IMG/VR virus record: IMGVR_UViG_3300046747_000409
Length of the DNA stretch: 64,000 bases
Direction: 5' to 3' (one strand)
From: an uncultured virus (IMG/VR IMGVR_UViG_3300046747_000409)
Lineage: Duplodnaviria; Heunggongvirae; Uroviricota; Caudoviricetes
This document shows positions 16,147 to 32,920 of this stretch, one piece after another. The stretch's first letter is position 1, and each line of letters starts with the position of its first letter. Both the position numbers and the translations under genes were made by a program. The notes under the pieces were generated by a model, which was given only the letters and a program-made list of their open reading frames with translations, did no database searches and was not told where the DNA came from.

Positions 16147-16186
16147 GCAAAAATCGAGGCACCCTGCGCCTACGCGCGCGCGACCC

Positions 16187-16245
16187 TGGGTGACGCGCAC
16201 GGCCCCTTCGGGGAGCTTGGTCTTTCTCGACCTCCCCAGTAAGCT
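16187..16245 (+). promoter_or_regulatory. Hairpin-promoter element copy 1
   Basis: GGGTGACGCGCACGG-CCCC-TTC-GGGG-N26-TAAGCT. Confidence 0.6.
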
Positions 16246-16251
16246 GACGAG

Positions 16252-16608
16252 ATGGACCGATCCAAACTGGCCATGCCGCCTCGTCCTGCCCGATACGTCG
16301 GGGAGCAGGGCCTGCCCATCTTCCGTGTGTCCTACACGTTAGATGGCAGACCTAAAGTTTCGCTGGTAGAAAAGCCAACGATCATAAACGCCCGCGCGTG
16401 GGCTCAACGCGAGGGTAGGCGTTTTGGGTGGACGGGTATCACGGTAGGTCGATGGCTTGGTGGGATGAACTTTACACCGACCGTGCGAAGCGTACCACAC
16501 GACATACACGTACCACACGACACGCAATGCGATCAATGCACAACACGCCCATTGGGTGACGCAGGCAGTTCCTCTGGAACGGATAGTCCGATTGATGAGC
16601 CCGGTTAG
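16252..16608 (+). CDS. Hypothetical protein (3' end runs into promoter copy 2)
   Basis: ATG 6 nt after -10 of copy 1. Confidence 0.45.
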   Translation: MDRSKLAMPPRPARYVGEQGLPIFRVSYTLDGRPKVSLVEKPTIINARAWAQREGRRFGWTGITVGRWLGGMNFTPTVRSVPHDIHVPHDTQCDQCTTRPLGDAGSSSGTDSPIDEPG

Positions 16609-16611
16609 AAT
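16552..16611 (+). promoter_or_regulatory. Hairpin-promoter element copy 2
   Basis: TTGGGTGACGCAGGCA-GTTCC-TCT-GGAAC-N25-TAGAAT. Confidence 0.75.
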
Positions 16612-16647
16612 GAATGTAGCGAAACAAACCAACCCTCGGAGTTCACC

Positions 16648-17232
16648 ATGAAATACCTTGCCATCACGATCATGCTCGTCATCTGCATGCCGCTCTTTTC
16701 TGCTGACGACGTTCCTCTCCCACCGGATGCCGCCAAACTCGTCGACGGTGCCGCCAAAGCCTTCACTGAGATCGAGACCAAGGCGCTCTTGTCGAAATTG
16801 GACACGCTGACGGCGCTCATCCCTAAGCTCACGAAGGCTCAGGATACGGCGACGAAGGCGGGCAAGCTGGAAGTGTCCCTGGCGATCAAGGCCAAGATCG
16901 ACGAGTACCGGAAACAGGTCGATGAAATCACGGCGTTGCGCCCTGCACCTAAGGTCGTCAGCACGTCGAAAGATGTGGTCCTCTACGCTCAACCGGACTT
17001 CAAAGGGCCGGGCACGATCGTCAAGCAATTCGACACGATTATCGATGCATACAAGATCAGCTTCCCGAACGACGGGCTGCGCTCTGTCCGTCTCCCTGCT
17101 GGTTACGTCCTGGTCACCTATGCCGACAACCTGGGTGCAGGAACGGAATGCACGATTGCGACGGAATCTGCTGATCTGACGGGCACTCAAGCGCTCGGTA
17201 TGACCTCCTTCATGGTGAAGCGGATCAAGTAA
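16648..17232 (+). CDS. Secreted protein with C-terminal beta/gamma-crystallin domain
   Basis: Signal peptide; VVLYAQPDFKG and NDGLRSVRLPAGY.LVTY Greek-key motifs; GGAG SD. Confidence 0.75.
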   Translation: MKYLAITIMLVICMPLFSADDVPLPPDAAKLVDGAAKAFTEIETKALLSKLDTLTALIPKLTKAQDTATKAGKLEVSLAIKAKIDEYRKQVDEITALRPAPKVVSTSKDVVLYAQPDFKGPGTIVKQFDTIIDAYKISFPNDGLRSVRLPAGYVLVTYADNLGAGTECTIATESADLTGTQALGMTSFMVKRIK

Positions 17233-17234
17233 AT

Positions 17235-17897
17235 ATGCAGAGGATCATGCATCAGGTGTGGGTAGGTCCGTATACCATGCCCAAACGGGAGCGCACGTTC
17301 GTAGACCGAATGCGTGCGCTCCATCCCACCTGGGAGCATCGGATGTGGTCGGATGGTACCCTTCCGCCAATGTCTGATTGGGTACGGGAGCGCTTCGAGT
17401 GGCGCATGTCTCAGCGCGAGTACGCCTTCGCTGCTGACGTGCTTCGTGTGGCCGCGGTGTACGCTATCGGAGGCATCTACCTGGACGTGGACACGGAGCC
17501 TCTACGAGAGATTACCGACCTCCATTTAGACTCATTCGCTGCCGTATTCCGACATCATCGTGATCACGATCTGACTCTCTCCAGTGACTTCATTGGAATG
17601 ACCGCTGGGCACCCTTTAGGTGCCTGCCTTCTGGAATCCATGCGTGCTCCAGCCTACGACTTCGGACCTCACTGGCTTGGGTACACCGTTCGATCGTTTT
17701 TCGAGCTAGCGCGAGATGCTGGCCACGCACAGCTTCGCGCTGCTTTCAACACCGAATGCATGCGCTACATGCCAAGCGACGAAGGTGATGCAGAGCGGCT
17801 TCAGGATGTGTCCTGGACGAAGTACTTCGCGAATCACGCCCTCTTTTCATGGCATCCCGACAACGTGAAAAAATTCGCATCCGGAGATTATGAGTAA
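17235..17897 (+). CDS. Glycosyltransferase, GT32/DXD (OCH1-like)
   Basis: IMHQVWVG, HPTWEHRMW, AADVLR..AVY..GGIYLDVD. Confidence 0.85.
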   Translation: MQRIMHQVWVGPYTMPKRERTFVDRMRALHPTWEHRMWSDGTLPPMSDWVRERFEWRMSQREYAFAADVLRVAAVYAIGGIYLDVDTEPLREITDLHLDSFAAVFRHHRDHDLTLSSDFIGMTAGHPLGACLLESMRAPAYDFGPHWLGYTVRSFFELARDAGHAQLRAAFNTECMRYMPSDEGDAERLQDVSWTKYFANHALFSWHPDNVKKFASGDYE

Positions 17898-18586
17898 TGC
17901 ACCCTGACGTCACGCCCGCCCGCAGCACCGCCCCGCTCTCCTTCCAGGAGATCTGGTCCCCCTGGCGCTTCAACCTGGGCGACCACTGGCAGACGGTCAA
18001 CTACCTGATCACGCGCTCGTTCATCCTGCGCGAGGAGCAGCTGCTGTCCCGTTGGCAGCACGGCAGGGATTGCAGTAAGCGATTCAAGGAAATCCTGGCG
18101 TTGATCAAAGGGCCGGAGCGCTCATGCGTCACCCTGGTCGACGCCGTGGGCTCCCGCGAGCCTGACGGCTTCGACGTGTGGGCCGCGCCGTCATGGCCAA
18201 CCCATGAGACGTGGAAGCCGCATGAGCTCATGAACCACGACACCGTCACGTACCAGTTCGACGGTGTCAGTTCAGCGGCCGAAAAGAACCCACCGCGTGA
18301 GGATCAGACGCGGATGCTCGCGGCGATGGAGCGCGGCCTGAACGTCTACAGCGTCAAGCGCCTGGGCTCGGATTCGACCCTAGCTCAGTGCGTCGACGAG
18401 ATGCGCCGGTCAATCGTCTTCGTCGGCTGCGATAGCGGCATGTCCCATATCGCGCATGCCGTCGGGGTGCCGACCATCATCGTCGAGTACGGCTTGCCGA
18501 TCATCACCTGCCACCGCGGGAAGCACTTCGTGCATGTCCGTGGGACAGATGAGGCCGTGAAGGCGATCGAGCGGACGCTGCGTTAA
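17897..18586 (+). CDS. GT9-like (heptosyltransferase-type) glycosyltransferase
   Basis: FVGCDSGMSHIAHAVGVPTI motif. Confidence 0.75.
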   Translation: MHPDVTPARSTAPLSFQEIWSPWRFNLGDHWQTVNYLITRSFILREEQLLSRWQHGRDCSKRFKEILALIKGPERSCVTLVDAVGSREPDGFDVWAAPSWPTHETWKPHELMNHDTVTYQFDGVSSAAEKNPPREDQTRMLAAMERGLNVYSVKRLGSDSTLAQCVDEMRRSIVFVGCDSGMSHIAHAVGVPTIIVEYGLPIITCHRGKHFVHVRGTDEAVKAIERTLR

Positions 18587-18840
18587 AGGTTGATGAGTGC
18601 GGCGTACGCTGCCTTCGACAGAAGTACCACCTCCGCGCCCTCTTCCCCCCGACCCTTAGCGAACACTGGCTTGCTCGTTTTGTCTGCCTTATCCACGGCA
18701 TTGAACAAGTCCTTACGGAGCCCGCTGATCGTGTACGGGTCTGACGACGTGCCCTTGATGGGCTTGGAAACGCCCGCCTTGATACGCGCCTTCGCGCCTT
18801 TGGTGATGCGTACGGTCTTAGGGTGTTTGCTGTGACTCAT
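18583..18840 (-). CDS. Phd/YefM-like antitoxin/DNA-binding protein (orphan)
   Basis: YTISGLRKDLFNAVDKA..SKPV...GAEVVLLSKAAY matches Phd/YefM N-domain pattern; no adjacent toxin. Confidence 0.65.
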   Translation of the reverse strand: MSHSKHPKTVRITKGAKARIKAGVSKPIKGTSSDPYTISGLRKDLFNAVDKADKTSKPVFAKGRGEEGAEVVLLSKAAYAALINL

Positions 18841-18918
18841 GTCACACTTGTACGTATTGCTTGTATATTGCAAACACGTACCTGTTCATCAGATCTTGAG
18901 AAACGCGCAATACGTACG

Positions 18919-18978
18919 TTGGGTGACGCACGCAGTTCCTCCGGAACGAGTCGTCCTTCTCGATAGGGCCGTTATAAT
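18919..18978 (+). promoter_or_regulatory. Hairpin-promoter element copy 3
   Basis: TTGGGTGACGCACGCA-GTTCC-TCC-GGAAC-N25-TATAAT. Confidence 0.85.
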
Positions 18979-19030
18979 GAACCCCGTTGAGACAAACACC
19001 ATCCACCGATCCAAACCCCAGGAAGAGATC

Positions 19031-19210
19031 ATGGCCACTCACGACATCGATAGCCGCTTGGTTCCGAAAGCCAACTGGCAAACGAAGCAACGAGGCTCAA
19101 ACGACGACGAGTACCAGATCTACCTGGACTGCGCCAACGACGGAAAAGGTGGCGACGTCACTCGTGATGGCGCTCCGCTCCTGTCCTACGACGAATGGCT
19201 GGCGTCATGA
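19031..19210 (+). CDS. Small hypothetical protein
   Basis: ATG after AGGAAGAG; ATGA coupled to next gene. Confidence 0.65.
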   Translation: MATHDIDSRLVPKANWQTKQRGSNDDEYQIYLDCANDGKGGDVTRDGAPLLSYDEWLAS

Positions 19211-19422
19211 GACATGACCACGATACCGGCAAACCTCTGGTTGCCTTCGGGCTGAACCTGAATGCCGACGGCTCCCCCATCCGGGGGGCGGTCAACACCC
19301 GGAAGGTCGGGGATCATGGGTGTGATCCCATCGGTGACGGCACCTACCGCATGGTCCCGTCCGGAGACATCGTCAACTTCGAGGAACGCTGCAAGCGCCT
19401 CGCCGCATGGAGAGCGTCATGA
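19207..19422 (+). CDS. Small hypothetical protein
   Basis: ATGA overlaps at both ends. Confidence 0.6.
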   Translation: MRHDHDTGKPLVAFGLNLNADGSPIRGAVNTRKVGDHGCDPIGDGTYRMVPSGDIVNFEERCKRLAAWRAS

Positions 19423-19826
19423 CCCTCACCACACCCATGCTCACAGCCCCTACGTCCCTGAACGATCTGCTGGCTGCTATCAAAGCCGCCGGTTCAATCG
19501 ACGAATGTCCCTACGTCACGACGGGCGAAGGGCGAAACCTCCGGGTGCATCCTCAGTGGACCTGCGTCGTCGGAGGTACGGAGGCGAGTCACTCCGACCT
19601 GTGGCGATTCGATGGGACGGGGAGGGTCACCGTCTGCCGACGCACCGAGTGGGACGCCAAAAAGGGTCACTACGACAGCATCACGCATGCCGCTATGCGA
19701 CTGCATCTGACGCCAGCCAAGCTGCGCAAGATCCGCGACACCATCGGTGAGCGTACGAAAGACATGTACCTGTATCGCTCTGCTAGCTTCAACTGCTGGC
19801 AAACCACCCCTTGGAAGGACCGCTGA
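19419..19826 (+). CDS. Hypothetical protein
   Basis: ATGA overlap; TGATCATG junction downstream. Confidence 0.6.
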   Translation: MTLTTPMLTAPTSLNDLLAAIKAAGSIDECPYVTTGEGRNLRVHPQWTCVVGGTEASHSDLWRFDGTGRVTVCRRTEWDAKKGHYDSITHAAMRLHLTPAKLRKIRDTIGERTKDMYLYRSASFNCWQTTPWKDR

Positions 19827-19828
19827 TC

Positions 19829-20224
19829 ATGCCTAAGTACTTCCCTGGTCCGTACCAGTGCGCGGCGTGCAATCGACTGTTCGACACGCCGATGTACTGC
19901 TTCTGTAGTGGCGGTCCCGGTTACCAAGCTCGTCGAGTGGTGACCTTTCGCTACGCATTCCGTTGCTTCCCCCGTGAAGTCGTCGCACCTGAGGTGCCTC
20001 GCACCTACTGGTTGCTGAACCCGGCAAACGGCCTGGGCTGTTCTTCCAACCCGCACGAAGCGCACTTGTTCTCGTTAGACGAGACTCACACCATGTGCCC
20101 GACGCTCAACGTTGGCATCGCCGTAGGTGTGACTTCCCGATTCTCGGACTTGTACACCTACGAGTGCGTCCCCGTGGACGACGTGCTCACTGCCATACGC
20201 CAGTACGACTTGGAGGCCGCATGA
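19829..20224 (+). CDS. Hypothetical Cys-containing protein
   Basis: CAAC..CFC; coupled junctions. Confidence 0.55.
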   Translation: MPKYFPGPYQCAACNRLFDTPMYCFCSGGPGYQARRVVTFRYAFRCFPREVVAPEVPRTYWLLNPANGLGCSSNPHEAHLFSLDETHTMCPTLNVGIAVGVTSRFSDLYTYECVPVDDVLTAIRQYDLEAA

Positions 20225-20532
20225 CCATCACCGCATCCTCCCACGACCTGGACGAAGAGGTGAAAGCCGCCCGGGGGCTTCACCCGTCAGCCGAGAAGTA
20301 CCTGCCCCTGATCAAGGCGCGGGTCGACCGGTGGGCGAATGCCTCCGGCGCCAACTTGTACTACTGCGCCCGGGACGTACTGGCGGATCAGGCTCCGGGC
20401 TTGACGAACCACCAGCGACTGACCGCCGTGTATTCGGTCCTCCCGCTCCTGCTGGTGCATGTCAACGCCAAGGGGTATAAAAAATTCCAGAATAGTACCG
20501 GAGCTCACGTGTGGTCGGTGCGTCTGGTATGA
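20221..20532 (+). CDS. Hypothetical protein
   Basis: GGAGG + ATGA overlap. Confidence 0.6.
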   Translation: MTITASSHDLDEEVKAARGLHPSAEKYLPLIKARVDRWANASGANLYYCARDVLADQAPGLTNHQRLTAVYSVLPLLLVHVNAKGYKKFQNSTGAHVWSVRLV

Positions 20533-20768
20533 ACATCCATCACACGGTGGGCGTTTACCCGAACGGGCAGTACAAGGAAAACGGCGTACTTCCCGTTCAT
20601 TTGTTCGATCATGTCCAGTACAACATGTTCTGGCGACCGGGTCGCGCGCTCTTCGTGGATGGTACGCTCGTGTATGCTGGAATCATGACTCCTGAGTCAC
20701 TAGCGAATGCAATCAAGACGGTGGCGACGTTGCCTCCCGTAACGCAATGCACGGTTCCCTATCATTAA
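20529..20768 (+). CDS. Small hypothetical protein
   Basis: ATGA overlap; ends just before promoter copy 4. Confidence 0.6.
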   Translation: MNIHHTVGVYPNGQYKENGVLPVHLFDHVQYNMFWRPGRALFVDGTLVYAGIMTPESLANAIKTVATLPPVTQCTVPYH

Positions 20769-20784
20769 ACACGCAATGCGCACG

Positions 20785-20842
20785 TTGGGTGACGCACGTG
20801 GTCCTTCGGACAAGTCGCCACTCTCCAGACCATCGATATAAT
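20785..20842 (+). promoter_or_regulatory. Hairpin-promoter element copy 4
   Basis: TTGGGTGACGCACGTG-GTCC-TTC-GGAC-N25-TATAAT. Confidence 0.85.
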
Positions 20843-20867
20843 GACCCCTATAAGAAAGGAGGCCAAA

Positions 20868-20891
20868 ATGAATTACCCTTACCGTCGCTAA
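20868..20891 (+). CDS. Minigene MNYPYRR with perfect Shine-Dalgarno
   Basis: AGAAAGGAGG-ccaaa-ATG AAT TAC CCT TAC CGT CGC TAA directly downstream of TATAAT. Confidence 0.5.
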   Translation: MNYPYRR

Positions 20892-20928
20892 CACGATAGA
20901 TCGGCATCCGCCACATCTTGAACTGTTC

Positions 20929-20970
20929 GCCGGTCGTCCCTCTCCCCTATAACGGACGACCGGCTTTTCT
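20929..20970 (+). terminator. Intrinsic terminator/attenuator
   Basis: 11-bp perfect stem GCCGGTCGTCC/GGACGACCGGC followed by TTTTCT. Confidence 0.7.
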
Positions 20971-21008
20971 CTCGATCCCTGATCCAAACCCCACGCTCGG
21001 AGTTTCCC

Positions 21009-22067
21009 ATGCACGACCTCAACATCAAATCCAATGGCGACGCCGCCTTCTACAGCCTCCGCGAAAGCGCATGGCACGGCATGGGCACCGTCGTCAACGC
21101 CCCCGTCAGTGACCCTGAAGTGCGCCGCTTGGCCGGGCTCGATTGGAACGTCACCACCGAGCCGCTGTTGCGTCAGGATCTGACCCCTGTCGACGGCTTC
21201 CGGGCCACGGTGCGGAGCGACACCAAGGCAACGCTTGGCGTGGTCGGCCCTTCCTACACCCCTGTTCAGAATGCGGAGCTGTTCGACTGGTTGCGTGGTC
21301 TGGACGGCTACACCGACGTCACCATCGAGACCGCCGGCGCTCTGGGCCGAGGCGAGACCGTGTGGGTGATGGGTCGCTGCAACGACCTCAAGCTCGACCT
21401 CGGTGATGGTGGCATCCAGCCGTACATGTTGCTGAGCAACGGCCACGCTGGAAATCGGCAGGTCACCATCATGCCGACCACGGTCCGGGTTGTATGCTCC
21501 AACACCCTCCGCATGGCCATCGGCAAGGGCGAGCGGAAAAACGACCTGTCCAGTGGCTTCCAGCTGCGCCACACGACGAACGTGGCTGAGGCCATGAAGC
21601 GTGTTCAAGAGGCGTACGTCGCCACTACGAATGCCTGGAAGGTCACCGAGGAGGCCCTCCGGTTCCTGGCCAGCAAGCAGTACTCCACCGAAAAGCTGGT
21701 GAAGCTGATGCTCCGCACCTTCCAGCCGGACGTGTCTGAAGACGAGGCGGAAGACATCACCGACGAGAGCGTACGAGCTAAGCTCATCCGGGAGACCCGC
21801 GAGAATCGTCTGATGACCATCCTGGGCAGCAAGACGTGCAACGCTCCGGCCATCCGTGGCACGATGTACTCCGCCCTCCAAGCGATGACGGAATACATCG
21901 AACATGAGACCTTGGTGACGGTCCGCGAGACGGACGGGAAGCTCGGCCCGGACGAGAAGAAGCGAGCACTGGCAATGGCCCGGTTCCGCTCGGTGAATTT
22001 CGGCGGCAACGGTGACGATGCCAAGGGCCGGGCGTGGGATGCTGCGCTGGAACTTGCTGCGAGCTGA
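21009..22067 (+). CDS. DUF932 family phage/plasmid protein
   Basis: AWHGMG..AGLDWNV..RSDT..LGVVG..YTPVQN..F..ETAGAL.RG..TTVRVVCSNTL..RHT pattern. Confidence 0.85.
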   Translation: MHDLNIKSNGDAAFYSLRESAWHGMGTVVNAPVSDPEVRRLAGLDWNVTTEPLLRQDLTPVDGFRATVRSDTKATLGVVGPSYTPVQNAELFDWLRGLDGYTDVTIETAGALGRGETVWVMGRCNDLKLDLGDGGIQPYMLLSNGHAGNRQVTIMPTTVRVVCSNTLRMAIGKGERKNDLSSGFQLRHTTNVAEAMKRVQEAYVATTNAWKVTEEALRFLASKQYSTEKLVKLMLRTFQPDVSEDEAEDITDESVRAKLIRETRENRLMTILGSKTCNAPAIRGTMYSALQAMTEYIEHETLVTVRETDGKLGPDEKKRALAMARFRSVNFGGNGDDAKGRAWDAALELAAS

Positions 22068-22123
22068 TCGAGACGTACACCTCACCTACACCCGGCGCCT
22101 CCTGGCCGGGTACTGGAGCCCCC

Positions 22124-22411
22124 ATGCACCACTTCGACCACGTCCATGAGGCGATCGGCACGGCACCTAAATACGCCATCGGTGACACAGTGGTTTTCGT
22201 CAATGACTACGGCGTGAACTGGGGCGAGAAAATCGTGTCTGCCTACGAGTGGAACGACGTGCGCGGGCACACCTACCAGTACGAGGGCACACAAACGCCA
22301 TGGTTTCACTCAAGCGAGCGCAGTTTTTTCCGTCCGGAAAACACCGAGTTGATCGCTGAGGCCATGCGTGTCGGTCGCGCTGCGGGAATCACTGAGTATG
22401 GCGAATACTGA
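22124..22411 (+). CDS. Hypothetical protein (SH3-like PKYAIGDTVVF)
   Basis: GGAG SD before ATG 22124. Confidence 0.6.
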   Translation: MHHFDHVHEAIGTAPKYAIGDTVVFVNDYGVNWGEKIVSAYEWNDVRGHTYQYEGTQTPWFHSSERSFFRPENTELIAEAMRVGRAAGITEYGEY

Positions 22412-23027
22412 CATGGAGTTCACCATACAACCGCCCGGCAACTCGCTCCCCCGAGGGCACCGCCCGCTCACACGTGAGGAGGGTCGCATACTCCTCGTCG
22501 AAGTGCAGGAGTCCCAGCGCGAGCTCCTCCGCCACAAGATTGAATCTGGCTCCATCGTCGTCCTTGCCTCCGACCTCATCACCGCCCCCATCCCTAAGGA
22601 AACTCTCGTGAGCATCAACCATTCCCTCCGCGCCCTCGCCGCCGTCGCCCTGGCCGCCACCATCGCCGAGACCGAACGCAACGAAGGTACCTTCGTCCTT
22701 CGCACCGGCGATGAGCCGCCAGATCATGTTCTGGAGGAGCGCGACGCCCGACGGCGTCTACGCGAACGGGAACAGGTTCGGCGTGATGCTGAGTACGAAA
22801 AGAACGCCGCCATCATCCGGGCGGAGCGTCTGAAACGAAAAGCCGAAAATCGCGTGAAACGCCAGCCCTACGGCAAGGGTCACGTCGTCATCAACGGCAT
22901 CAAATGCCCGGCCCAGCAGATGCCTCCGGACGGCAATTTCCGGAAGCGAACGACGCGCTACTTCTACAAGGGCCAGTGGTCGGAGTGGTGCAAGGATGAT
23001 CACGATATTTTCGTGGCTGACGCGTGA
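22398..23027 (+). CDS. Hypothetical protein
   Basis: ORF with charged helix; start uncertain. Confidence 0.55.
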   Translation: MANTDMEFTIQPPGNSLPRGHRPLTREEGRILLVEVQESQRELLRHKIESGSIVVLASDLITAPIPKETLVSINHSLRALAAVALAATIAETERNEGTFVLRTGDEPPDHVLEERDARRRLREREQVRRDAEYEKNAAIIRAERLKRKAENRVKRQPYGKGHVVINGIKCPAQQMPPDGNFRKRTTRYFYKGQWSEWCKDDHDIFVADA

Positions 23028-23463: not shown

Positions 23464-23531
23464 TCACGCAACGCATCGCCTTGCGCGTTCATCAGATCAA
23501 AGAGATACGCGCAATGCACTCAATGCACACG

Positions 23532-23591
23532 TTGGGTGACGCACGCAGTTCCTTCGGAACGAGTCGTCCTTCTCGTTAGGTCGCTTATAAT
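23532..23591 (+). promoter_or_regulatory. Hairpin-promoter element copy 5
   Basis: TTGGGTGACGCACGCA-GTTCC-TTC-GGAAC-N25-TATAAT. Confidence 0.85.
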
Positions 23592-23639
23592 GAACCCCGT
23601 TGAGATGAACCAAACGAAACAAACCAACGGAGATAGATC

Positions 23640-24077
23640 ATGGCCAAGTCCTGCACCCTGAGAAAAGATTGCGGCATGTACGATGTGACGGTCGATGGGA
23701 AGCAGACCCGGCTTCCAGTCACGAAACCGATTGTCGTCAACGGTGCCACGGTCATGAAAACCACCTTCATCCCAATGACGGCGATGCTGATCAAGCTGAC
23801 CCATATCAACGGGGGGACGGTGACCTTCAAGCAGACTACCATGGGCAAGCGTACCACGGTGACCCGTGAGACGGACCTGACGAAAGGTACCCGGATCAAC
23901 AAGGAAGCGACTGGCCCGGCGACGATCGAAACCGGCACCAAGCCGATGGGGCTCAAGGTGGATGTGGCGATCGGTCAGGTGCTGCGGATGACCGGGCTCA
24001 ATGCTCTGGAAGCCGCTCAGTTGTTCGACTTCGATGCGGTCCTCGCTGCTGGTATCCTGGTCGAGGCTGTGGCCTAA
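23640..24077 (+). CDS. Hypothetical Thr/Lys-rich protein
   Basis: GGAG SD; first gene after copy 5. Confidence 0.7.
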   Translation: MAKSCTLRKDCGMYDVTVDGKQTRLPVTKPIVVNGATVMKTTFIPMTAMLIKLTHINGGTVTFKQTTMGKRTTVTRETDLTKGTRINKEATGPATIETGTKPMGLKVDVAIGQVLRMTGLNALEAAQLFDFDAVLAAGILVEAVA

Positions 24078-24079
24078 TC

Positions 24080-24364
24080 ATGGATGCCTACACCGTCCCC
24101 CGAGCCGACTACACGGCCAACCTCACCACCCCGTACACTCTCGACAACCTCCTCAAGGGCGGATACACCCTCGCCAATGTGGACGACTTTGTCCACGACG
24201 GCCGCATCTCTGAAGCGCTGGCCAATGAGTTCTTCCAGGTGTGGGTGGTAGGCAAGTGCGAGTTCCGCTGGAATGCAGAATTGCAGCAACCGGAGGAGGC
24301 CATCTACCCAAGACAACATTACGCCGACGAACCGCCTACGTGGCGGAGAATGAGCTGGGGTTGA
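24080..24364 (+). CDS. Hypothetical protein
   Basis: TAATCATG junction. Confidence 0.6.
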   Translation: MDAYTVPRADYTANLTTPYTLDNLLKGGYTLANVDDFVHDGRISEALANEFFQVWVVGKCEFRWNAELQQPEEAIYPRQHYADEPPTWRRMSWG

Positions 24365-24366
24365 TC

Positions 24367-24672
24367 ATGAGCGAAGACACCTACGCCATCCGCATCCCAG
24401 AGCTCCGTACCTCCCAGCGAGATGACGAAAGTGATGCGCAATGGATCAATTACATCATGGGTTTCTACCAGAAAGAACTCCCTAACCTCCCTCAGGCGAC
24501 GATCACGGAATTGACCTGCATGACGTCTAAGTACCTCCGTGGCGACCCGTTCACGAGGCCCGGTGTGCTGTTCCTTGGCTATCACCACTGCCGCGCCGCC
24601 TTCGAGAAGGCCGTCGGCGTGGCCCTCCCTCCTACCATCACAGGCACCATGGCGGTGCTGAACAGGAACTGA
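24367..24672 (+). CDS. Hypothetical protein
   Basis: TGATCATG junction. Confidence 0.6.
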   Translation: MSEDTYAIRIPELRTSQRDDESDAQWINYIMGFYQKELPNLPQATITELTCMTSKYLRGDPFTRPGVLFLGYHHCRAAFEKAVGVALPPTITGTMAVLNRN

Positions 24673-24673
24673 C

Positions 24674-24916
24674 ATGTCCGCCACTAAATTCACCATCGCC
24701 AACGTCGCCAACAAGACCGGCAATTGCAGCGGCCTGTTCGCCCTGCGGGACGCCGACGACACGCTGGTCCCCCTGACGCAGACCACCAAGCGGGGCGAGT
24801 CGTTCACTGATGCCGAGTGGATCGAGATCAAGAAGGCCATGGTCTACATCCGCAACGAGCGTGCTGCCGTGTCGGTCACGATGGAGAGCGGCTTGATTGT
24901 GGAGACGCACAAATGA
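24674..24916 (+). CDS. Hypothetical protein
   Basis: TGACATG junction. Confidence 0.6.
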   Translation: MSATKFTIANVANKTGNCSGLFALRDADDTLVPLTQTTKRGESFTDAEWIEIKKAMVYIRNERAAVSVTMESGLIVETHK

Positions 24917-25167
24917 CATCGAATAGCGATGACACCCAAGCCAGCGGAGTCCATCCCGTCGTCACTCCTGCCCGGAGCATGACCACCGTGCAGCGACGCG
25001 TCGCCGTGATCGGAACGACGCTTTTCTTCACCTTCCTGATCGTCACCAACGCCGTCCTGGCCGTGGTGGCGCTCCGGCGCGGTGACGTGGTCATGACCGC
25101 GGCTCACGGTACGGCGGCGTACGCCGGGATCGTGTGGGCGATCTCCCTCTCCCTCCGTCAACCCTAG
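24913..25167 (+). CDS. Two-TM small membrane protein
   Basis: GGAG + ATGA overlap; two hydrophobic helices. Confidence 0.55.
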   Translation: MTSNSDDTQASGVHPVVTPARSMTTVQRRVAVIGTTLFFTFLIVTNAVLAVVALRRGDVVMTAAHGTAAYAGIVWAISLSLRQP

Positions 25168-25177
25168 GATCATCACC

Positions 25178-25573
25178 ATGTCCCGCACCAAAGCCCCTAA
25201 ATCCCCCGACATCATCCACGCCCTCGGAGCCGCCCTGGCGGCGAGCAAGCTCTACGCGCAGACGATCGACCAGCTGATCACCTGCGAGGACAAGAAGGAC
25301 TTCAAGGGCGCCGCCGATCTCCTGAAGCTCGGACACGAGCAGGTGCTCAAGCTCAAGGACGCGCACAACAACTTGTACGTCCCGGTGAATGCGGCGATCA
25401 AGGCCGCAGCTCCGGCGAAGGCCGAAAAGCCTCCGCGCGAGTCCAAGGAAGAACGCACGTCGCGGAAGCATGCTGCTGCCGGTGAACCGACCGGTAAATG
25501 CGCTAAATCCCTCGCGAAGGCGGTCAAGGAAGCGGATCCCAAAATCACCGAGCAATCAGGCGACGAGCCGTAA
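25178..25573 (+). CDS. Hypothetical protein with K/A/E-rich tail
   Basis: TAGGAT-N7-ATG. Confidence 0.65.
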   Translation: MSRTKAPKSPDIIHALGAALAASKLYAQTIDQLITCEDKKDFKGAADLLKLGHEQVLKLKDAHNNLYVPVNAAIKAAAPAKAEKPPRESKEERTSRKHAAAGEPTGKCAKSLAKAVKEADPKITEQSGDEP

Positions 25574-25707
25574 TAGTACACCACAGTACGTCACATTACG
25601 TAACGCACTACGAAATACGTGGTGCGTTACGTACGTTAATCGCGCAATGCACGCATTACGTCGCGTTGCGTGTTCATCAGATCAAAGAGATACGCGCAAC
25701 GCGTTCA

Positions 25708-25765
25708 TTGGGTGACGCGCACAGTCCTTTGGACAAGTCGTCCTCCTCGTCAGGTCGTTTATAAT
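25708..25765 (+). promoter_or_regulatory. Hairpin-promoter element copy 6
   Basis: TTGGGTGACGCGCACA-GTCC-TTT-GGAC-N25-TATAAT. Confidence 0.85.
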
Positions 25766-25821
25766 GAGGGCATCGAACCAAACCCGGTCCGATAGAAACC
25801 CCCTGACCTAGGAAACGCACC

Positions 25822-26172
25822 ATGAGCAAGTCCACCAAGAGCAAGACCACCAAGCCCATCAAGACCATCGACACCACCGCTGAAGTCGTCCAGACCACGG
25901 CTCTGGCAAAACAGACCGGTGCTCAAGTCCGTGAAGCGATCCTGATCCAAGTCAAGAAGCTGAAAATTCAGTATGTCCCGGTTGTCGGCAACACCTACCC
26001 ACAGAAGAAACTGATCTGGGTGCATGGCGGATACTGGGATAAGGAAGCGAAGGTGCAGATGGTGCCCTCGATCTACGCCGAAAAGATGCAAAAGGCGGTC
26101 GACGAGCTCGACGTCAAGATCCAGGCGAACATCGCCAAGCGTAAGGCCAACCAGGAAGCCGTCGCCGTCTGA
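25822..26172 (+). CDS. Basic protein with GNTYP..GG.WD domain
   Basis: PVVGNTYPQK..GGYWDKEAK; paralogous to a domain in 26296..27264. Confidence 0.7.
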   Translation: MSKSTKSKTTKPIKTIDTTAEVVQTTALAKQTGAQVREAILIQVKKLKIQYVPVVGNTYPQKKLIWVHGGYWDKEAKVQMVPSIYAEKMQKAVDELDVKIQANIAKRKANQEAVAV

Positions 26173-26232
26173 GTCTACACAAGCCGGGTGCCTCCGACCC
26201 GGCTACATCAGGACACGTACGCTAAACGTACC

Positions 26233-26288
26233 TTGCCTGACACACGCAGCCTTCGGCAAGTCGTCCCTCTCCCCCACTTCGATAGGAT
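26233..26288 (+). promoter_or_regulatory. Hairpin-promoter element copy 7
   Basis: TTGCCTGACACACGCA-GCC-TTC-GGC-N25-TAGGAT. Confidence 0.75.
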
Positions 26289-26295
26289 GATCCCC

Positions 26296-27264
26296 ATGAA
26301 CACCACCATCACCCCTCCCTCAGTCAAACACCCGATGACCTGCATCGTCATCACTCCGGTCGAAGGCCCTGGAAAAGACCCGCTGACGTTCTCGACATGG
26401 CGTAAAGCGGAGGAGTACATCAACCGCTTGTGTGCTGATGCGCCGCAAGATGGCAGCTACTGGAAGACGGACTTCAGCATCACCTGGGCCGACGGAGAGA
26501 CGTACGAAGGCCGTTATGACGCGGCCCACCCCCACAGTCGTTCCCACGAGGGTTCACTGGCTCAGCACTGCCTCGACTTCCTCACCTTCCGTGCCGGGTT
26601 GCGCTGCCCGAATCACCTGACGCAAGCTCAGTATGACGACATCATGAGAGACGAGTTTCATGGCCCTGTCGTGATCGCTGAGGCTACTCGGTTCCTGAAG
26701 GCCTACAGCTTCGTCGACAGCATGGTGACCCCTCAGCTGGCCCGTGAGCTGGTGGCCGAGTTGCATCAGTCGGAAGGCCCTACCGTCCCCGAGGGTTCCA
26801 GTGCGTCAGAGTCTGCCGGGTTGCACCGTGCATACGTCGCCAAGCACGCCACCCCGATGCTGCCGGTGGTCGGCAACAGCTACCCGGTGAAAAACGTCCT
26901 GTACGCTTGGGGTGGCCGCTGGGACGGTACCGCCAAGACGTGGCTGGTCCCTGCCTACAAGCACGCTGAAGCCCAGGCGATGGTGGACAAACACACGAAA
27001 CAGCCTGTTGCGAAGGCCGCAGCTGCTCCGCTCCCTCAACCAGCCCCAAAGCCTCAACAGTCCCCCACGAAGGCGCCCCAGCAGGCCCCAACGAAGGCCC
27101 CTGTGAAGGCGAAGCCTGCCGCCCCTGCGAAGAAGTTCCGGACCCCGATCCAGAAACGCTACGATGCGCTGATCGTCGGGATTCAGTTGCTGGCGGAAGA
27201 CCTGCCTCCGGGCTTCATGACCGACGTCCTGATCTACCTGGACGACCGCAAGGATAAGATCTGA
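26296..27264 (+). CDS. LPD25-like domain fused to GNSYP..GGRWD domain
   Basis: SYWKTDFSITWADGETYEGRYD...GSLAQH; PVVGNSYPVK..GGRWD..KTW; ATG 7 nt after -10. Confidence 0.65.
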   Translation: MNTTITPPSVKHPMTCIVITPVEGPGKDPLTFSTWRKAEEYINRLCADAPQDGSYWKTDFSITWADGETYEGRYDAAHPHSRSHEGSLAQHCLDFLTFRAGLRCPNHLTQAQYDDIMRDEFHGPVVIAEATRFLKAYSFVDSMVTPQLARELVAELHQSEGPTVPEGSSASESAGLHRAYVAKHATPMLPVVGNSYPVKNVLYAWGGRWDGTAKTWLVPAYKHAEAQAMVDKHTKQPVAKAAAAPLPQPAPKPQQSPTKAPQQAPTKAPVKAKPAAPAKKFRTPIQKRYDALIVGIQLLAEDLPPGFMTDVLIYLDDRKDKI

Positions 27265-27303
27265 GCTCGCTTCCCCACCCCTCTTCATCCGGTAGGATTC
27301 GTC

Positions 27304-27591
27304 ATGACCATCGTCGAAATGATCCAGGCCAGCCGCCCTCCGGAGTCCCATGCCTGGGATCGGATGCGGCAGACGCCCGGCTCGTGCCCCGCGACTGTCG
27401 CCGGTAATCATCTGGGCTACCATTGGGACATCCCCCGCGATGCCTGGAATGCCCTCTTTCACAAGTTTGGAGAAGCACGTGCGCTCATCGAAATCGAATC
27501 CCCCGAAAGACCATTCTGCGGGACTCCTGTCGAACATCAGCCGCGAGAGTGCCTGGACGCTTGGAAACGCTGGGTCGCCAGTCTTAGCTGA
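27304..27591 (+). CDS. Hypothetical protein
   Basis: TAGGAT-N5-ATG. Confidence 0.55.
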   Translation: MTIVEMIQASRPPESHAWDRMRQTPGSCPATVAGNHLGYHWDIPRDAWNALFHKFGEARALIEIESPERPFCGTPVEHQPRECLDAWKRWVASLS

Positions 27592-28231
27592 GCCTGATCC
27601 GGTTCCGCGCGTCCTGTTCGATGTCTTAGAGCCGGGTACCGGAAAAGAGTGGTCGACCGTCCACTGCGTCGTCAACGGCGTGCAGAAGTCCCTCGCGTGG
27701 CCGCCGGGCATCCGCTCGACCGAGGTACACCTGGGCGAGAAGTATTTCAGCCACTTCGGCGCTGGCGTTTACAGGGACTTGTTCCGCGAGTGTCAGGATC
27801 GGATGATCGCCTCGTCTGACATGGAGCAGCTCGCAGTCGGCGCACACTCCTACGAGCTCTACATCCTGAGCGAGCGCGGTGGCGTCTGGTGGGCTCTCAA
27901 GACCACGGACCGGAGTCCGCGTGTCGCCGGGTGTGGCTTCCTGGCGACCCAAGGCACGAAGCTCATCGTGCAGAGCGCCATGATCTGGCTCGCGAAAGAT
28001 CGCAAGCTCGGTCTCTACCCGATCGTGCTCCAGCGTCTGCGTGAATGGGCTCGCCCTGGTACGGTGTACTCTGACGTGTGCATGTCGGCTCAGGCCGTGA
28101 TGTCGTGGAACGCGGCGGTCGCTAAGGGTGCGGCGACGTTCGACGAGAAGGAAGGCCGGTATCGGAGGAATCCCACCCGATCCCCACGGCGCGTGAAGAT
28201 CGTGCGCTTCTTAAAACGTGCGCGTCATTAA
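27350..28231 (+). CDS. Possible GNAT-like protein with C-terminal RRNP basic tail (true start uncertain, probably downstream)
   Basis: RKLGLY..L...VYSD..MS..A..W resembles the GNAT acetyl-CoA region; GRYRRNP tail. Confidence 0.45.
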   Translation: MPGIGCGRRPARAPRLSPVIIWATIGTSPAMPGMPSFTSLEKHVRSSKSNPPKDHSAGLLSNISRESAWTLGNAGSPVLAEPDPVPRVLFDVLEPGTGKEWSTVHCVVNGVQKSLAWPPGIRSTEVHLGEKYFSHFGAGVYRDLFRECQDRMIASSDMEQLAVGAHSYELYILSERGGVWWALKTTDRSPRVAGCGFLATQGTKLIVQSAMIWLAKDRKLGLYPIVLQRLREWARPGTVYSDVCMSAQAVMSWNAAVAKGAATFDEKEGRYRRNPTRSPRRVKIVRFLKRARH

Positions 28232-28246
28232 TACGCAACGCATGCC

Positions 28247-28304
28247 TTGCGTGACACACGCAGTCCTTCGGACAAGTCGTCTCTCTCGTCACCGTCGATA
28301 GAAT
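28247..28304 (+). promoter_or_regulatory. Hairpin-promoter element copy 8
   Basis: TTGCGTGACACACGCA-GTCC-TTC-GGAC-N25-TAGAAT. Confidence 0.8.
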
Positions 28305-28323
28305 GAGGGCATCGGAGCAGCAA

Positions 28324-28710
28324 ATGATCATCACTCAAATCAAGCCTCAGTTCGGCGCCATCCTCCTCGATTCAGACGTGGCCCTCGACATCCTGAAAGA
28401 GACGGAGTTGATACGGATCGCCAACCGTCCGACCTGCTATGACTTGCCGATCATTCTCGGTCACTTGGATGCACTGAGCCAGATCGTGCATCGCCATGTT
28501 CATCGGATGTCGGCGGAGGCGTACAAGTCCCTGGAGGGTGAGTTGTCGGCTTTCCGTAAGTCATCAGCCGCTCGCTACCATCACGGCTCCTGCCTCGACT
28601 GGTACTTTCGGTATGCCCAGGCGACAATCGCCAATGCCGCTGGTTTCCCTGATCGTGCTTCGTGGTCGTCCTACCTCGTCGAACACATGGGCGTCACGGC
28701 TTCCATCTAA
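28324..28710 (+). CDS. Hypothetical protein
   Basis: GGAG SD before ATG 28324. Confidence 0.6.
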   Translation: MIITQIKPQFGAILLDSDVALDILKETELIRIANRPTCYDLPIILGHLDALSQIVHRHVHRMSAEAYKSLEGELSAFRKSSAARYHHGSCLDWYFRYAQATIANAAGFPDRASWSSYLVEHMGVTASI

Positions 28711-28732
28711 ACCCTCCTGCTCGGAGTTCACC

Positions 28733-29521
28733 ATGCCTGCTACGTTCAACATCCCCGACCACATCGTCACCATCCTCCGCGATGCGACCCTCTACATCCC
28801 AGATAAGCCGAGCCCGGCGAACCTGTACACCCTCAAGCTCAACGGCCAGCTCGACCGCAAGGACTACGTGGCGGTCATGAAGGTGATCGAAGGCGCTGGC
28901 GGGAAGTGGGTCAAAAGGAAAGGGCTCCATGAGTTCCGCGACGATCCGAGCGAAGTGCTCGGTCTCGCCATGGAGACGGGCAAGGGCGTGAACCTGCAGC
29001 AACAGTTCCAGTCGTTCTATACTCCGGCGCATATCGCCGACAGGATGGTGGAGTTGCTGCCCGCTGGGATGAAGCGACTTCTTGAGCCAAGTTGCGGCGA
29101 GGGGTCTCTGGTGCGTGCGGTCCGCAAGGTCCACCCGGACATACGCATCGTCGCTGTCGACATCAACGACAAGGCGCTGGCGAAGATTCCGGTCGAGTAC
29201 AATACCATCGTACTGCAGGGTGACTTCCTGAGCATCAACCCTGACTTCGGTGAACGCTTTGACGCCATCTGCATGAATCCGCCGTTCACCAAGGGGCAGG
29301 ATGCGAAGCACGTCAACCATGCCCTGGACTTCCTGAAGCCCGGCGGCGTGCTGGTGGCCATCATGACTCCGAACGCCATGAACAAGGTGCAAGAGCCGTA
29401 CCGCTCGCTCTGCCTCCGGCTCAAGGCGGAATGCATGATCGACGAAGCGACTCCCCTGCCGAGTGGTACGTTCAAGGACACGGACATCGAAACGCTCATG
29501 GTGCGGATCACCAAAAAATAA
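28733..29521 (+). CDS. N6-adenine DNA methyltransferase
   Basis: FYTP, LLEPSCGEG (motif I), GDFL, MNPPF (motif IV); GGAG SD. Confidence 0.85.
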   Translation: MPATFNIPDHIVTILRDATLYIPDKPSPANLYTLKLNGQLDRKDYVAVMKVIEGAGGKWVKRKGLHEFRDDPSEVLGLAMETGKGVNLQQQFQSFYTPAHIADRMVELLPAGMKRLLEPSCGEGSLVRAVRKVHPDIRIVAVDINDKALAKIPVEYNTIVLQGDFLSINPDFGERFDAICMNPPFTKGQDAKHVNHALDFLKPGGVLVAIMTPNAMNKVQEPYRSLCLRLKAECMIDEATPLPSGTFKDTDIETLMVRITKK

Positions 29522-29523
29522 TC

Positions 29524-29691
29524 ATGACCAACCGCACCGGAAAACTCCTCGCCCTCGTCATCGCCGCCCTCGGTTGCCTCGTCATGGCAATCGTGGGGGC
29601 GGCGAATGGTGACTGGCCCTTCGCTATCGGTTTCATCGTCCTGATGCTGTGCCTCCTGTATGTGTGGAGCGTTGAATATCACGACCTGTGA
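29524..29691 (+). CDS. Small two-TM protein
   Basis: TAATCATG junction; two hydrophobic helices. Confidence 0.55.
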   Translation: MTNRTGKLLALVIAALGCLVMAIVGAANGDWPFAIGFIVLMLCLLYVWSVEYHDL

Positions 29692-29760
29692 TAACGTACG
29701 ACGCGTTTCATTGCGCGTCTCTTGATCTTGAGAAACGCGCAATACGGGCATTACGCATCG

Positions 29761-29820
29761 TTGGGTGACGCGCACAGTTCCTTCGGAACGAGTCGTCATT
29801 CTCGTTAGGGTGTTTATAAT
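29761..29820 (+). promoter_or_regulatory. Hairpin-promoter element copy 9
   Basis: TTGGGTGACGCGCACA-GTTCC-TTC-GGAAC-N25-TATAAT. Confidence 0.85.
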
Positions 29821-32887: not shown

Positions 32888-32920
32888 ACTAACACGTACA
32901 ACTCCCAAAATCGGATCACC

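Follow-up and report, generated by a model that had tools for sequence, protein, structure and literature searches.

Nine near-identical promoter elements (P1 to P9) head small groups of early genes in this uncultured soil phage. All lie on the + strand, between positions 16186 and 29820 of the window (the whole 64,000-nucleotide stretch of DNA that was analysed), and the cluster sits at 37-51 kb of the 117.5-kb contig, away from its ends. The original prediction had placed nine elements here, and all nine were confirmed at their positions. We found that an nhmmer profile built from the aligned copies gives exactly nine matches in the window, on the + strand only, with E values from 8e-24 to 1.7e-12, the next-best window match being at E 0.065. 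A degenerate 17-mer of the upstream box, allowed at most two mismatches, gives 10 matches (the nine copies and a site at 46113), against 1.58 expected from shuffled sequences, and 10 matches were reached in 0 of 100 shuffles. The layout common to all nine copies is TTGGG-TGAC-N7-hairpin (13, 11, or 9 nt)-N25-TAnnnT-GA, with highly conserved flanks, TTGGGTGAC upstream and GTCGTCC at the -35 position.

Specifically, P1 (16186..16247) consists of the box CTGGGTGAC (16186-16194), a CCCC/GGGG hairpin with loop TTC and an outer G.A (16202-16214), and the -10 hexamer TAAGCT (16240-16245) followed by GA; its ATG at 16252 lies 6 nt past the hexamer, which is a leaderless geometry. The N26 spacing earlier assigned to this copy depends on the counting, P1 having N7/N25 if the outermost G.A is included in the hairpin and N8/N26 if it is not. 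P2 (16552..16613; box 16552-16560, GTTCC/GGAAC hairpin 16568-16580 with loop TCT, TAGAAT 16606-16611, ATG 16648) lies within the 3' end of the ORF at 16252-16608, whose stop codon TAG forms the first bases of the P2 hexamer. P3 (18919..18980) has its box at 18919-18927, a GTTCC/GGAAC hairpin with loop TCC at 18935-18947, TATAAT at 18973-18978, and the ATG at 19031. In P4 (20785..20844), the box (20785-20793), the GTCC/GGAC hairpin with loop TTC (20801-20811), and TATAAT (20837-20842) precede a leader with a 7-codon mini-ORF, 25 nt from the hexamer, and a terminator, and then a DUF932 gene (ATG 21009); the canonical terminator with a T run occupies 20929-20964 plus its tail. P5 (23532..23593; box 23532-23540, GTTCC/GGAAC hairpin 23548-23560 with loop TTC, TATAAT 23586-23591, ATG 23640) is followed by P6 (25708..25767; box 25708-25716, GTCC/GGAC hairpin 25724-25734 with loop TTT, TATAAT 25760-25765, ATG 25822). 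P7 (26233..26290), with the box TTGCCTGAC (26233-26241), a GCC/GGC hairpin with loop TTC (26249-26257), and TAGGAT (26283-26288), again has leaderless geometry, its ATG at 26296 lying 7 nt past the hexamer. The last two copies are P8 (28247..28306; box TTGCGTGAC at 28247-28255, GTCC/GGAC hairpin 28263-28273 with loop TTC, TAGAAT 28299-28304, ATG 28324) and P9 (29761..29822; box 29761-29769, GTTCC/GGAAC hairpin 29777-29789 with loop TTC, TATAAT 29815-29820, ATG 29859). From P1 to P9, the hexamer-to-start distances are 6, 36, 52, 166, 48, 56, 7, 19, and 38 nt, and the eight intergenic gaps longer than 90 nt at 16.1-29.9 kb are all filled by eight of the nine elements.

Inverted repeats stand upstream of some copies. 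At P3 (18850..18917, +), 11-bp arms (18850-18860 and 18907-18917) enclose the conserved TTCATCAGATCTTGAGAA (18885-18902); at P5 (23481..23514, +), 8-bp arms (23481-23488 and 23507-23514) flank the conserved loop TTCATCAGATCAAAGAGAT, which recurs at P6 (25663..25702, +) between 11-bp arms (25663-25673 and 25692-25702); and at P9 (29710..29743, +), 9-bp arms (29710-29718 and 29735-29743) surround CTCTTGATCTTGAGAA. A stem at 29700-29719, adjoining the P9 inverted repeat, was flagged as terminator-like. Alternating purine/pyrimidine runs of at least 9 nt flank the box, with 16 in the 900 nt 5' of the hexamers compared with 2.0 expected from the window density. The copies are mosaic, P6 matching P5 upstream, P4 and P8 in the stem, and P9 downstream. 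The window also holds a second repeat family, GATTTGAC(T/A)CAC, with a class II copy at 58921. Searches of the window ORFs against Pfam (93 ORFs), PHROGs (94), and NCBIfam (84) turned up no RNA polymerase, sigma factor, or DNA-binding regulator.

The TAnnnT hexamer, which is of the sigma-70/SigA type, very probably represents a genuine -10 box. Its T, A, and T are invariant across the nine copies while the middle positions vary, and in two copies (P1 and P7) the predicted start site coincides exactly with the ATG. At 11 of the 92 predicted starts in the window, P1 and P7 included, a TAnnnT ends 5-8 nt ahead of the start codon, at exactly 6 nt in seven of these 11; among all + strand ATG/GTG triplets, used as a control, this geometry occurs in 29 of 2037 (1.4%). 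The nine further starts of this kind have neither a -35 element nor a hairpin. Consequently, the missing -35 is not peculiar to the hairpin family, and, since plain promoters with neither element exist, the hairpin need not substitute for a -35. At a 16-nt spacer, the family carries a TCGTCC-like hexamer that matches TTGACA at three of six positions (four of six in P4 and P9). As such, the earlier remark that no TTGACA sits at -35 was right as to the non-consensus sequence, but the position is not featureless, its T, G, and C being invariant, and its non-consensus state does not set the family apart.

The hairpin measures 13 nt in five copies (P1, P2, P3, P5, P9) and 11 nt in three (P4, P6, P8); P7, whose stem has only 3 bp, has the shortest at 9 nt. 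Its stems are of four types (GTTCC/GGAAC in four copies, GTCC/GGAC in three, GCC/GGC and CCCC/GGGG in one each), no change leaves them unpaired, and all indels are symmetric. The four indels between TGAC and the hexamer all fall within the stem and form two symmetric pairs; TGAC and the hexamer are accordingly 49, 47, or 45 apart, depending on hairpin length, and N25 is kept in 9/9, which bears out the claim that stem length alters the upstream spacing and not the distance from stem to TAnnnT. The flank distances run from the stem base, whatever the stem length, and the 25-nt spacer has transversions in 14 of its 19 variable columns, yet zero indels. In a gapless alignment on the hairpin centre, 85% of cells pair and two of the five pairs are altered on both sides, giving a covariation score of 0.40 versus 0.085 for shuffles (reached in 0 of 500), with slid controls at no more than 0.23. 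The small hairpin stem thus covaries, and the proposal that the stems differ and stay paired holds across its four variants. As paralogues between which segments are exchanged, the nine copies represent few independent compensating events, about four. The outer GAC/GTC (GACG/CGTC) pairing proposed alongside has no support, with 0/9 pairs changed on both sides and a score reached by 491 of 500 shuffles.

The hairpin core CC-YYY-GG is invariant in 9/9, and the loop reads TTC in six copies and TCT, TCC, and TTT in one each. On the template strand, all 27 loop positions are purines; C:G closure and a 3' A, both expected of N4-like C-GNA-G loops, are present in 9/9, but the 5' G in only 7/9. Since AGA and AAA, two of the three variant loops, do not have it, the loop rule is not strict. 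Calculated DNA energies for the 3-5 bp stems are -1.5 to -3.1 kcal/mol under a parameter set that gives no bonus for special triloops, and RNA energies are -2.8 to -5.8 kcal/mol; none of the nine stems contains a G.U pair. With these RNA energies and no T run, the hairpin lacks the strength needed for a terminator.

Our preferred reading, held tentatively and at somewhat less than an even chance, is that the elements are early promoter cassettes for the host polymerase, each with an upstream control module specific to the phage, in which the hairpin would act as a DNA structure. The nine cassettes would be early promoters of a phage of ~118 kb, each heading a short rightward operon of small genes mostly of unknown function. 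Host RNA polymerase with its primary sigma factor would start ~7 nt past the hexamer, so that in P1 and P7 the start would be the A of the ATG and the mRNA leaderless. The module from about -66 to -24 would then be the control unit that separates this class from the plain -35-less promoters. The module's place upstream of the start and its indel-free lock to the hexamer make action on the DNA itself most likely. In the simplest physical picture, the arms would base-pair to form a small hairpin or cruciform, which the negative supercoiling of newly entered DNA would favour; a host factor, a virion-borne factor, or the polymerase itself may read the box, the hairpin, and the GTCGTCC box as one surface, switching the promoters on early or shutting them off later. 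Extrusion and a structure-specific activator may be involved; the suggested activity on single-stranded DNA during genome entry draws no support from these features.

The invariant core could also serve a dimeric phage or host regulator that binds CC-N3-GG near -44 on B-form DNA, without intrastrand pairing, with the TTGGGTGAC box as a second site. Class II-type activators that touch the polymerase, e.g., Mu Mor/C, sit near -44, which is where the hairpin centre lies. Cluster O mycobacteriophages have >30 copies of a 17-bp dyad repeat (7-bp arms, 3-bp spacer) that is considered regulatory (PMC4351075); there, however, the arms are invariant. One protein would expect one half-site, but the outer arms differ between promoters and are complementary within each, and on B-DNA the symmetric arm indels would shift the box against the hexamer by 2 or 4 bp. 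The ORF searches of the window also returned no regulator gene, and we regard such an operator as unlikely. Decidedly unlikely is a tandem arrangement in which the box and N7 (TTGGGTGAC(G/A)CAC...) would serve a phage single-subunit RNA polymerase starting at the invariant G that opens the hairpin, the hairpin would be a protective 5'-terminal RNA stem-loop, and the host-type promoter 38 nt downstream would be a separate second start. This would account for the fixed N7 and for the G in 9/9, even unpaired in P1; the TGAC-N-CAC core, which we take to resemble T7/SP6-type promoter cores, recurs in the GATTTGAC(T/A)CAC family. Phage polymerases can evade family searches, as in the case of P23-45 (PMC10770324), and the window leaves out ~53.5 kb of the contig. 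However, no window ORF matches Pfam RNA_pol or combines a motif B-like with a motif C-like signature, initiation would fall in GC-rich sequence, the same geometry at the class II copy (58921) would remove a ribosome-binding site, and the strong GTCGTCC conservation and fixed N25 to a bona fide -10 would be left unexplained.

The energies bear on a further reading, an RNA element of read-through transcripts (a weak attenuator, processing mark, or 3' stabiliser) whose fixed place is a duplication legacy. The stems are calculated to be somewhat more stable as RNA than as DNA, the cassettes look duplicated and mosaic, and the T4-type PeSL cassettes pair promoters with stem-loops in similar small-gene regions (PMC2839356). 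We consider this improbable: the stems lack a U run and are far from the terminator type at 20929-20964, the bigger upstream inverted repeats fit such a role better, and the hairpin is present even in P1, the first promoter of the block. The indel-free spacer with its many substitutions and the lack of G.U pairs speak against it as well, and the CT-rich box does not pair with downstream ribosome-binding sites (z -1.9 to +1.0). Even less credible is that the hairpin has no function of its own, being an inherited palindrome whose perfection is maintained by template-switch (quasipalindrome) mutation and by gene conversion between the copies; mosaicism with few independent events fits this, and template-switch mutation can also yield symmetric palindrome changes, but the element is kept at one exact position in 9/9, the divergent P1 and P2 included, with an invariant core, an all-pyrimidine loop, and indels only in the stem. 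Finally, the elements might be true N4-type promoters, at which an injected virion polymerase would bind the template hairpin and start ~11 nt downstream, within GTCGTCC, with TAnnnT used by host polymerase at another time. Loop and closing pair obey the N4 rule in 7/9, and conserved sequence directly follows the stem. We nevertheless judge this the most improbable of the readings, given that the distance from loop centre to GTCGTC varies with stem length while N4 fixes loop to start, that a C occupies the equivalent of the N4 -8 G, that 5/9 stems are shorter than those of N4, that the conserved unit is far longer, that the cluster is not terminal, and that the window contains no giant polymerase gene.

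The preferred reading, host-type cassettes with a structured upstream module, describes a family that resembles known phage promoter cassettes and N4 hairpin promoters and is identical to neither. The N4 early promoters (N4 P1-P3) are read by the injected virion RNA polymerase, with a hairpin centred at -11, a 5-7 bp stem, and a conserved unit from -17 to +1, and loop features such as the 5' G are needed for extrusion at physiological supercoiling (PMC4496689). Both kinds precede early genes and share a small hairpin with a 3-nt, C:G-closed loop of template purines (5' G and 3' A together in 7/9 here) and a stem whose sequence is free provided it pairs. The geometry differs, with the middle of the loop 32 nt ahead of the hexamer and at about -44 relative to the inferred start; here an 80-nt conserved unit ends in a host-type -10, the stems have 3-5 bp, there is no -8 G contact base, nine copies lie mid-contig rather than three at the genome end, and the window searches found no virion polymerase. 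Of the hairpin-plus-sigma-70 class originally proposed, the sigma-70-type -10 and a constrained mini-hairpin at a fixed place survive, but the geometry is not that of N4 and the hairpin need not stand in for a -35. The PeSL (promoter-early stem-loop) cassettes of the T4-type phages RB49 and phi1 (Arbiol et al. 2010, PMC2839356) are likewise repeated composites of host-type promoter and stem-loop, set in a plastic early region ahead of small genes whose function is unknown. As described there, their promoters have a full sigma-70 consensus with AT-rich upstream sequence and their stem-loops are strong terminators of variable place in five subclasses, whereas the present family has a non-consensus -35, GC-rich upstream sequence with alternating purine/pyrimidine tracts, and tiny stem-loops that lack a T run and keep to a fixed place. 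In Thermus phage P23-45, a phage factor reportedly switches promoters, including -35-less ones. T4 middle promoters with MotA/AsiA, mentioned in the N4 article (PMC4496689), are also -35-less and dependent on phage factors. Both systems share a good -10, a conserved non-consensus box at -35, and a temporal class with the present family, but they lack a hairpin, the present window showed no homologue of their factors, and its plain promoters likewise have no -35. Among actinobacterial phages, a SigA-type TAnnnT -10 with the start codon at +1 and leaderless mRNAs is a further likeness, as is the genome-repeated Cluster O dyad with its 3-bp spacer (PMC4351075). The 7-bp Cluster O arms are invariant and not locked to a promoter, whereas the arms here covary and keep a fixed distance of 25 nt from the hexamer.

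All nine elements on the + strand between 16186 and 29820 (P1 to P9, in order) share a single fixed layout, and the window contains exactly nine of them, as the original prediction had proposed. When the copies are anchored on TGAC upstream and on the −10 hexamer downstream, each of them reads (T/C)TG(G/C)(G/C)-TGAC, 7 nt, a hairpin of 13, 11 or 9 nt, 25 nt, TAnnnT and GA. Between TGAC and the hexamer, length differs only within the hairpin, and symmetrically, which bears out the earlier observation that stem length alters the upstream spacing and leaves the stem-to-hexamer distance unchanged. Specifically, GTTCC/GGAAC becomes GTCC/GGAC through the loss of one T and one A, GCC/GGC has lost one more of each, and the CCCC/GGGG stem of P1 carries two matched substitutions; the stems measure 5 bp in four copies, 4 bp in four and 3 bp in one. 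The hairpin core CC-YYY-GG is invariant, and the claim that the stems stay paired though their sequences differ holds up, since covariation in a gapless centre alignment of the nine copies lies far above that of shuffled and slid controls. We discarded the outer GAC/GTC helix, said to be kept in all copies, because none of its pairs changes on both sides, unpaired cells occur at five of its nine pairs (at one of these, in four of the nine copies) and its score does not exceed that of shuffles; this pairing extends to GACG/CGTC, plus AC/GT in some copies. Elsewhere in the window, a hairpin followed by N24-26 and TAnnnT is not enriched, with eight occurrences on the + strand (all of them family members) and five on the − strand, versus 2 to 10 in shuffles. 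The nine copies form a mosaic, which hints at exchange between them.

Each element stands just 5' of a start codon with a Shine-Dalgarno-like motif or directly at a start codon, and together the nine fill the sizeable intergenic gaps of the 16.1-29.9 kb region. P2 (16552-16611) lies wholly within the 3' end of an ORF (16252-16608), and the stop codon of this ORF, TAG, is the first three bases of the hexamer. The hexamer reads TAnnnT in all copies and TATAAT in five; its T, A and T are invariant and its middle is variable, an information pattern that is the one of a primary-sigma −10 box. The strongest indirect evidence for a promoter role comes from leaderless geometry, and we infer the transcription starts from the sequence. 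An ATG follows the hexamer after 6 nt at P1, where it is the first ATG of the ORF, and after 7 nt at P7. Across the window, 11 of the 92 predicted + strand starts have a TAnnnT that ends 5-8 nt ahead of the start codon, versus 29 of 2037 (1.4%) for all + strand ATG and GTG codons. Besides P1 and P7, this geometry occurs at the + strand starts 1187, 3212, 3897, 10784, 11822, 12882, 25178, 48117 and 53542, none of which has a TTGACA-like −35, a hairpin or a Shine-Dalgarno motif; the start at 19031 has no TAnnnT at leaderless distance.

These hairpin-free starts bear directly on how the −35 region should be read. The statement that no TTGACA sits at −35 is correct insofar as there is no consensus match, but the position carries a conserved, non-consensus GTCGTCC box. 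In the best register, with a 16-nt spacer, TCGTCC matches TTGACA at three of six positions in seven copies and at four of six in P4 and P9, the box and TTGACA having T, G and C in common at this spacing. The view that the missing −35 is a gap that the hairpin must fill does not survive, because the nine leaderless starts outside the family also have none. A missing −35 is the rule in this genome, which weakens the main argument of the original prediction. Given these leaderless, −35-less starts, the host seems to employ TAnnnT promoters that lack a clear −35 and to translate mRNAs that have no leader. Leaderless mRNAs appear to be widespread, which hints at the type of host. The same leaderless, −35-less style is found in Deinococcus-Thermus. 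It is also described for actinobacterial phages in passages of a paper on Cluster O mycobacteriophages (PMC4351075).

The upstream module, from about −66 to −24, comprises the TTGGGTGAC box, an alternating purine/pyrimidine 9-mer, the hairpin and a GTCGTCC-CT-rich box; it is specific to the early class and locked to the hexamer. Since the module lies upstream of the predicted start, it would be absent from the RNA of its own promoter, and any role in RNA would need read-through transcripts. We rejected the hairpin as a terminator, because it lacks a T run and is too weak, at −2.8 to −5.8 kcal/mol when folded as RNA; a textbook terminator exists in the P4 leader. In this leader (20868-20975), a mini-ORF of 7 codons that has a strong ribosome-binding site (20868-20891) precedes an 11-bp GC-rich stem (20929-20939 / 20954-20964) and a T-rich tail, upstream of the DUF932 gene, and the arrangement looks like a leader-peptide attenuator; one part of its stem repeats GTCGTCCCTCTCCCC of the P7 promoter. 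For insulation, better candidates than the mini-hairpin are the larger inverted repeats farther upstream, at 18850-18917, 23481-23514, 25663-25702 and 29710-29743, just upstream of P3, P5, P6 and P9. Their 8-11-bp arms vary between copies around a conserved loop, TTCATCAGATC(A/T)(A/T)GAGA, and candidate roles for them are insulation, termination or protein binding. No support was found for pairing between the CT-rich box and the ribosome-binding sites downstream (the starts used were 5 nt off at P3 and 1 nt off at P4), and spacing, judged by eye, ruled out recognition of the box or arm by sigma-54 or an ECF sigma factor.

Several readings of the module have to be weighed. The invariant CC-N3-GG core would fit a dimeric regulator that reads the hairpin region as B-form DNA. 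Under such a regulator, however, it would be difficult to see why outer arm positions differ between promoters yet remain complementary within each, or why the box, always equally far from the stem base, is displaced by 2 or 4 bp with respect to the hexamer. Both the arm complementarity and the box shifts are expected from arms that pair with themselves, and we therefore rank a DNA-level hairpin or cruciform first; that the arms act in this way is, on the sequence pattern, a real possibility somewhat short of probable. A further reading takes the box as the promoter of a phage single-subunit RNA polymerase that starts at the G opening the hairpin. All copies have G as the first stem base, the box core appears to resemble T7/SP6-type promoter cores, and a second repeat family in the window has the same core. 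Against this stands the lack of any T7-like polymerase in the window: Pfam RNA_pol gave no match there, no window ORF combines motif B-like and motif C-like patterns, and searches for a polymerase or regulator with Pfam, PHROGs, NCBIfam and motif scans of the window, with PDB sequences for three large ORFs and with a protein atlas for the 785-aa ORF returned nothing useful. We consider a phage polymerase improbable given this lack, and keep it in play because almost half of the genome lies outside the window and phage polymerases can be cryptic, as in passages on phage P23-45 (PMC10770324).

The second repeat family, on the + strand at 32855-32889, 40180-40211, 53490-53524 and 58921-58955, with a partial copy at 16137-16146, reads GAGTC, about 22 nt, GATTTGAC(T/A)C(A)C. 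It lies just upstream of replication-type genes (starts 32921, 40281, 53542 and 58947), shares the core TGAC-N-CAC with the box of the nine early elements, and could represent a further class of promoter or operator. Its ends are inverted repeats of each other, and both are sites of the GANTC type, presumably a methylation motif.

The DNA-level hairpin or cruciform can be developed into a fuller proposal, in which a supercoil-sensing promoter class recruits host polymerase through an extruded mini-cruciform and its boxes, and DNA topology sets the early class. Freshly injected phage DNA would be wound by gyrase, and the 9-13-nt mini-cruciform would extrude about 44 nt upstream of the start, between alternating purine/pyrimidine tracts, with a stable purine triloop in its template strand. 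Cruciform, TTGGGTGAC box and GTCGTCC box would jointly make up a structure-specific docking surface, driving host polymerase onto −35-less promoters that are weak by themselves. We regard this full scheme as rather unlikely. Alternating runs of at least 9 nt occur in most copies, two around the TTGGGTG box (e.g., 18910-18919 and 18926-18934), and the 900 nt made up of about 100 nt upstream of each hexamer contain 16 such runs versus 2.0 expected. The letters vary between copies and the alternation is kept, which would make the tracts prone to Z-DNA; statistical support for selection on the tracts near the box is weak. Within N7, one of six variable columns has a transversion, versus 14 of 19 in the 25-nt spacer, and with few independent events this is only suggestive of selection for alternation. 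Altogether, the interpretation offered in the original prediction is partly supported. A keyword search of the literature, not exhaustive, turned up no account of a mini-hairpin that covaries and is locked upstream of a host-type −10.

The longest alternating run in the window (22 nt, 49689-49710) lies within a 722-nt non-coding region, 49378-50099, before the primase-helicase gene. With about ten GTAACAGATTT-type iterons on both strands and an AT-rich stretch near 49745-49775, this region looks like a replication origin.

The window is 62% G+C, and nearly all of its genes are on the + strand. Very few ORFs have matches in PHROGs, Pfam or NCBIfam; these include a family A DNA polymerase, a D5-type primase-helicase domain, a PD-(D/E)XK nuclease, a helicase, the DUF932 protein, two glycosyltransferases, a DNA methyltransferase, NADAR and a MazG-like protein. 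A 510-aa ORF (4618-6150) contains in-frame tandem repeats at 4955-5340 and 5593-5817, with three 75-nt units and a family of about 57-nt Ala/Lys/Pro/Val-rich units. No Rfam family or tRNA was found in the window. The DNA polymerase has 92 homologues at E ≤ 1e-10; the contig with the window's own copy measures 117,691 nt, and those of relatives with 88, 79 and about 50-60% identity reach up to 133 kb. In one soil-metagenome DNA run, a 117,549-nt contig carries the stretch with the promoter cluster at 37,030-51,530, so that about 21 and 32.5 kb of this contig, at its two ends, lie outside the window; the run contained only that source-like contig and no variant strain. No RNA run was found to contain this DNA. 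In our reading, the source is an uncultured phage, about 118 kb in size, whose lineage has been sampled poorly. GenBank phages include no near match to the window, single-protein scans of IMG/VR with three proteins gave no match, and neither did the primase-helicase against a genome collection. One metagenome scan returned two distant DUF932 loci, both without the promoter element. An alignment of 30 of the 92 polymerase homologues retrieved 77 loci from IMG/VR and 3 from genomes, none of them above 36% identity. A promoter profile and structural pattern run over 87 loci (1.41 Mb) found no element, the best E of 0.021 being a chance pattern match, and two IMG/VR motif scans gave 5 and 46 matches, none with the hairpin or hexamer.

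Should these promoters work through their hairpin together with a host-type −10 box, then small hairpins in DNA would serve promoters more generally than is now supposed. Read conservatively, the results map nine early operons cleanly. They also supply a promoter grammar, leaderless and −35-less, for a lineage of phages of about 118 kb in which nearly every protein is unknown; this grammar helps to annotate relatives and to guess the host of the lineage.

Two known systems invite comparison. Passages of the PeSL paper (PMC2839356) describe cassettes of consensus sigma-70 promoters and terminator-grade stem-loops at variable places, which repeat before small unknown genes in a plastic region and mediate gene shuffling. 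The nine elements likewise combine a promoter and a stem-loop before small unknown early genes; here, however, the −35 is non-consensus and the mini-hairpin is not terminator-grade.

The textbook promoter recognised as an extruded DNA hairpin is that of phage N4, which requires its own exotic polymerase and is, to our knowledge, nearly the sole case. In the parts of a review of N4 that bear on this (PMC4496689), its promoters have a 5-7 bp stem, a 3-nt loop, a C:G closing pair and a centre at −11; extrusion needs the 5' G and 3' A of the template loop, recognition involves the −11 purine, −10 G, −8 G and +1 C, and the promoters depend on gyrase and SSB. The template-strand triloops of our elements are as originally claimed (GAA in six copies, and GGA, AGA and AAA), with C:G closure and a 3' A in all nine and a 5' G in seven. 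In contrast to N4, five copies have stems below 5-7 bp, the base equivalent to the −8 G is C, and the loop centre lies 32 nt before the hexamer, at about −44 from the predicted start rather than −11. Moreover, how far the next conserved box lies from the loop centre depends on stem length, whereas the N4 start is a fixed 11 nt from that centre, and no virion RNA polymerase is seen within the 64-kb window of the 117.5-kb contig, about 53.5 kb of which lies outside. The nine elements are not members of the N4 family, but they may work in an N4-like mode.
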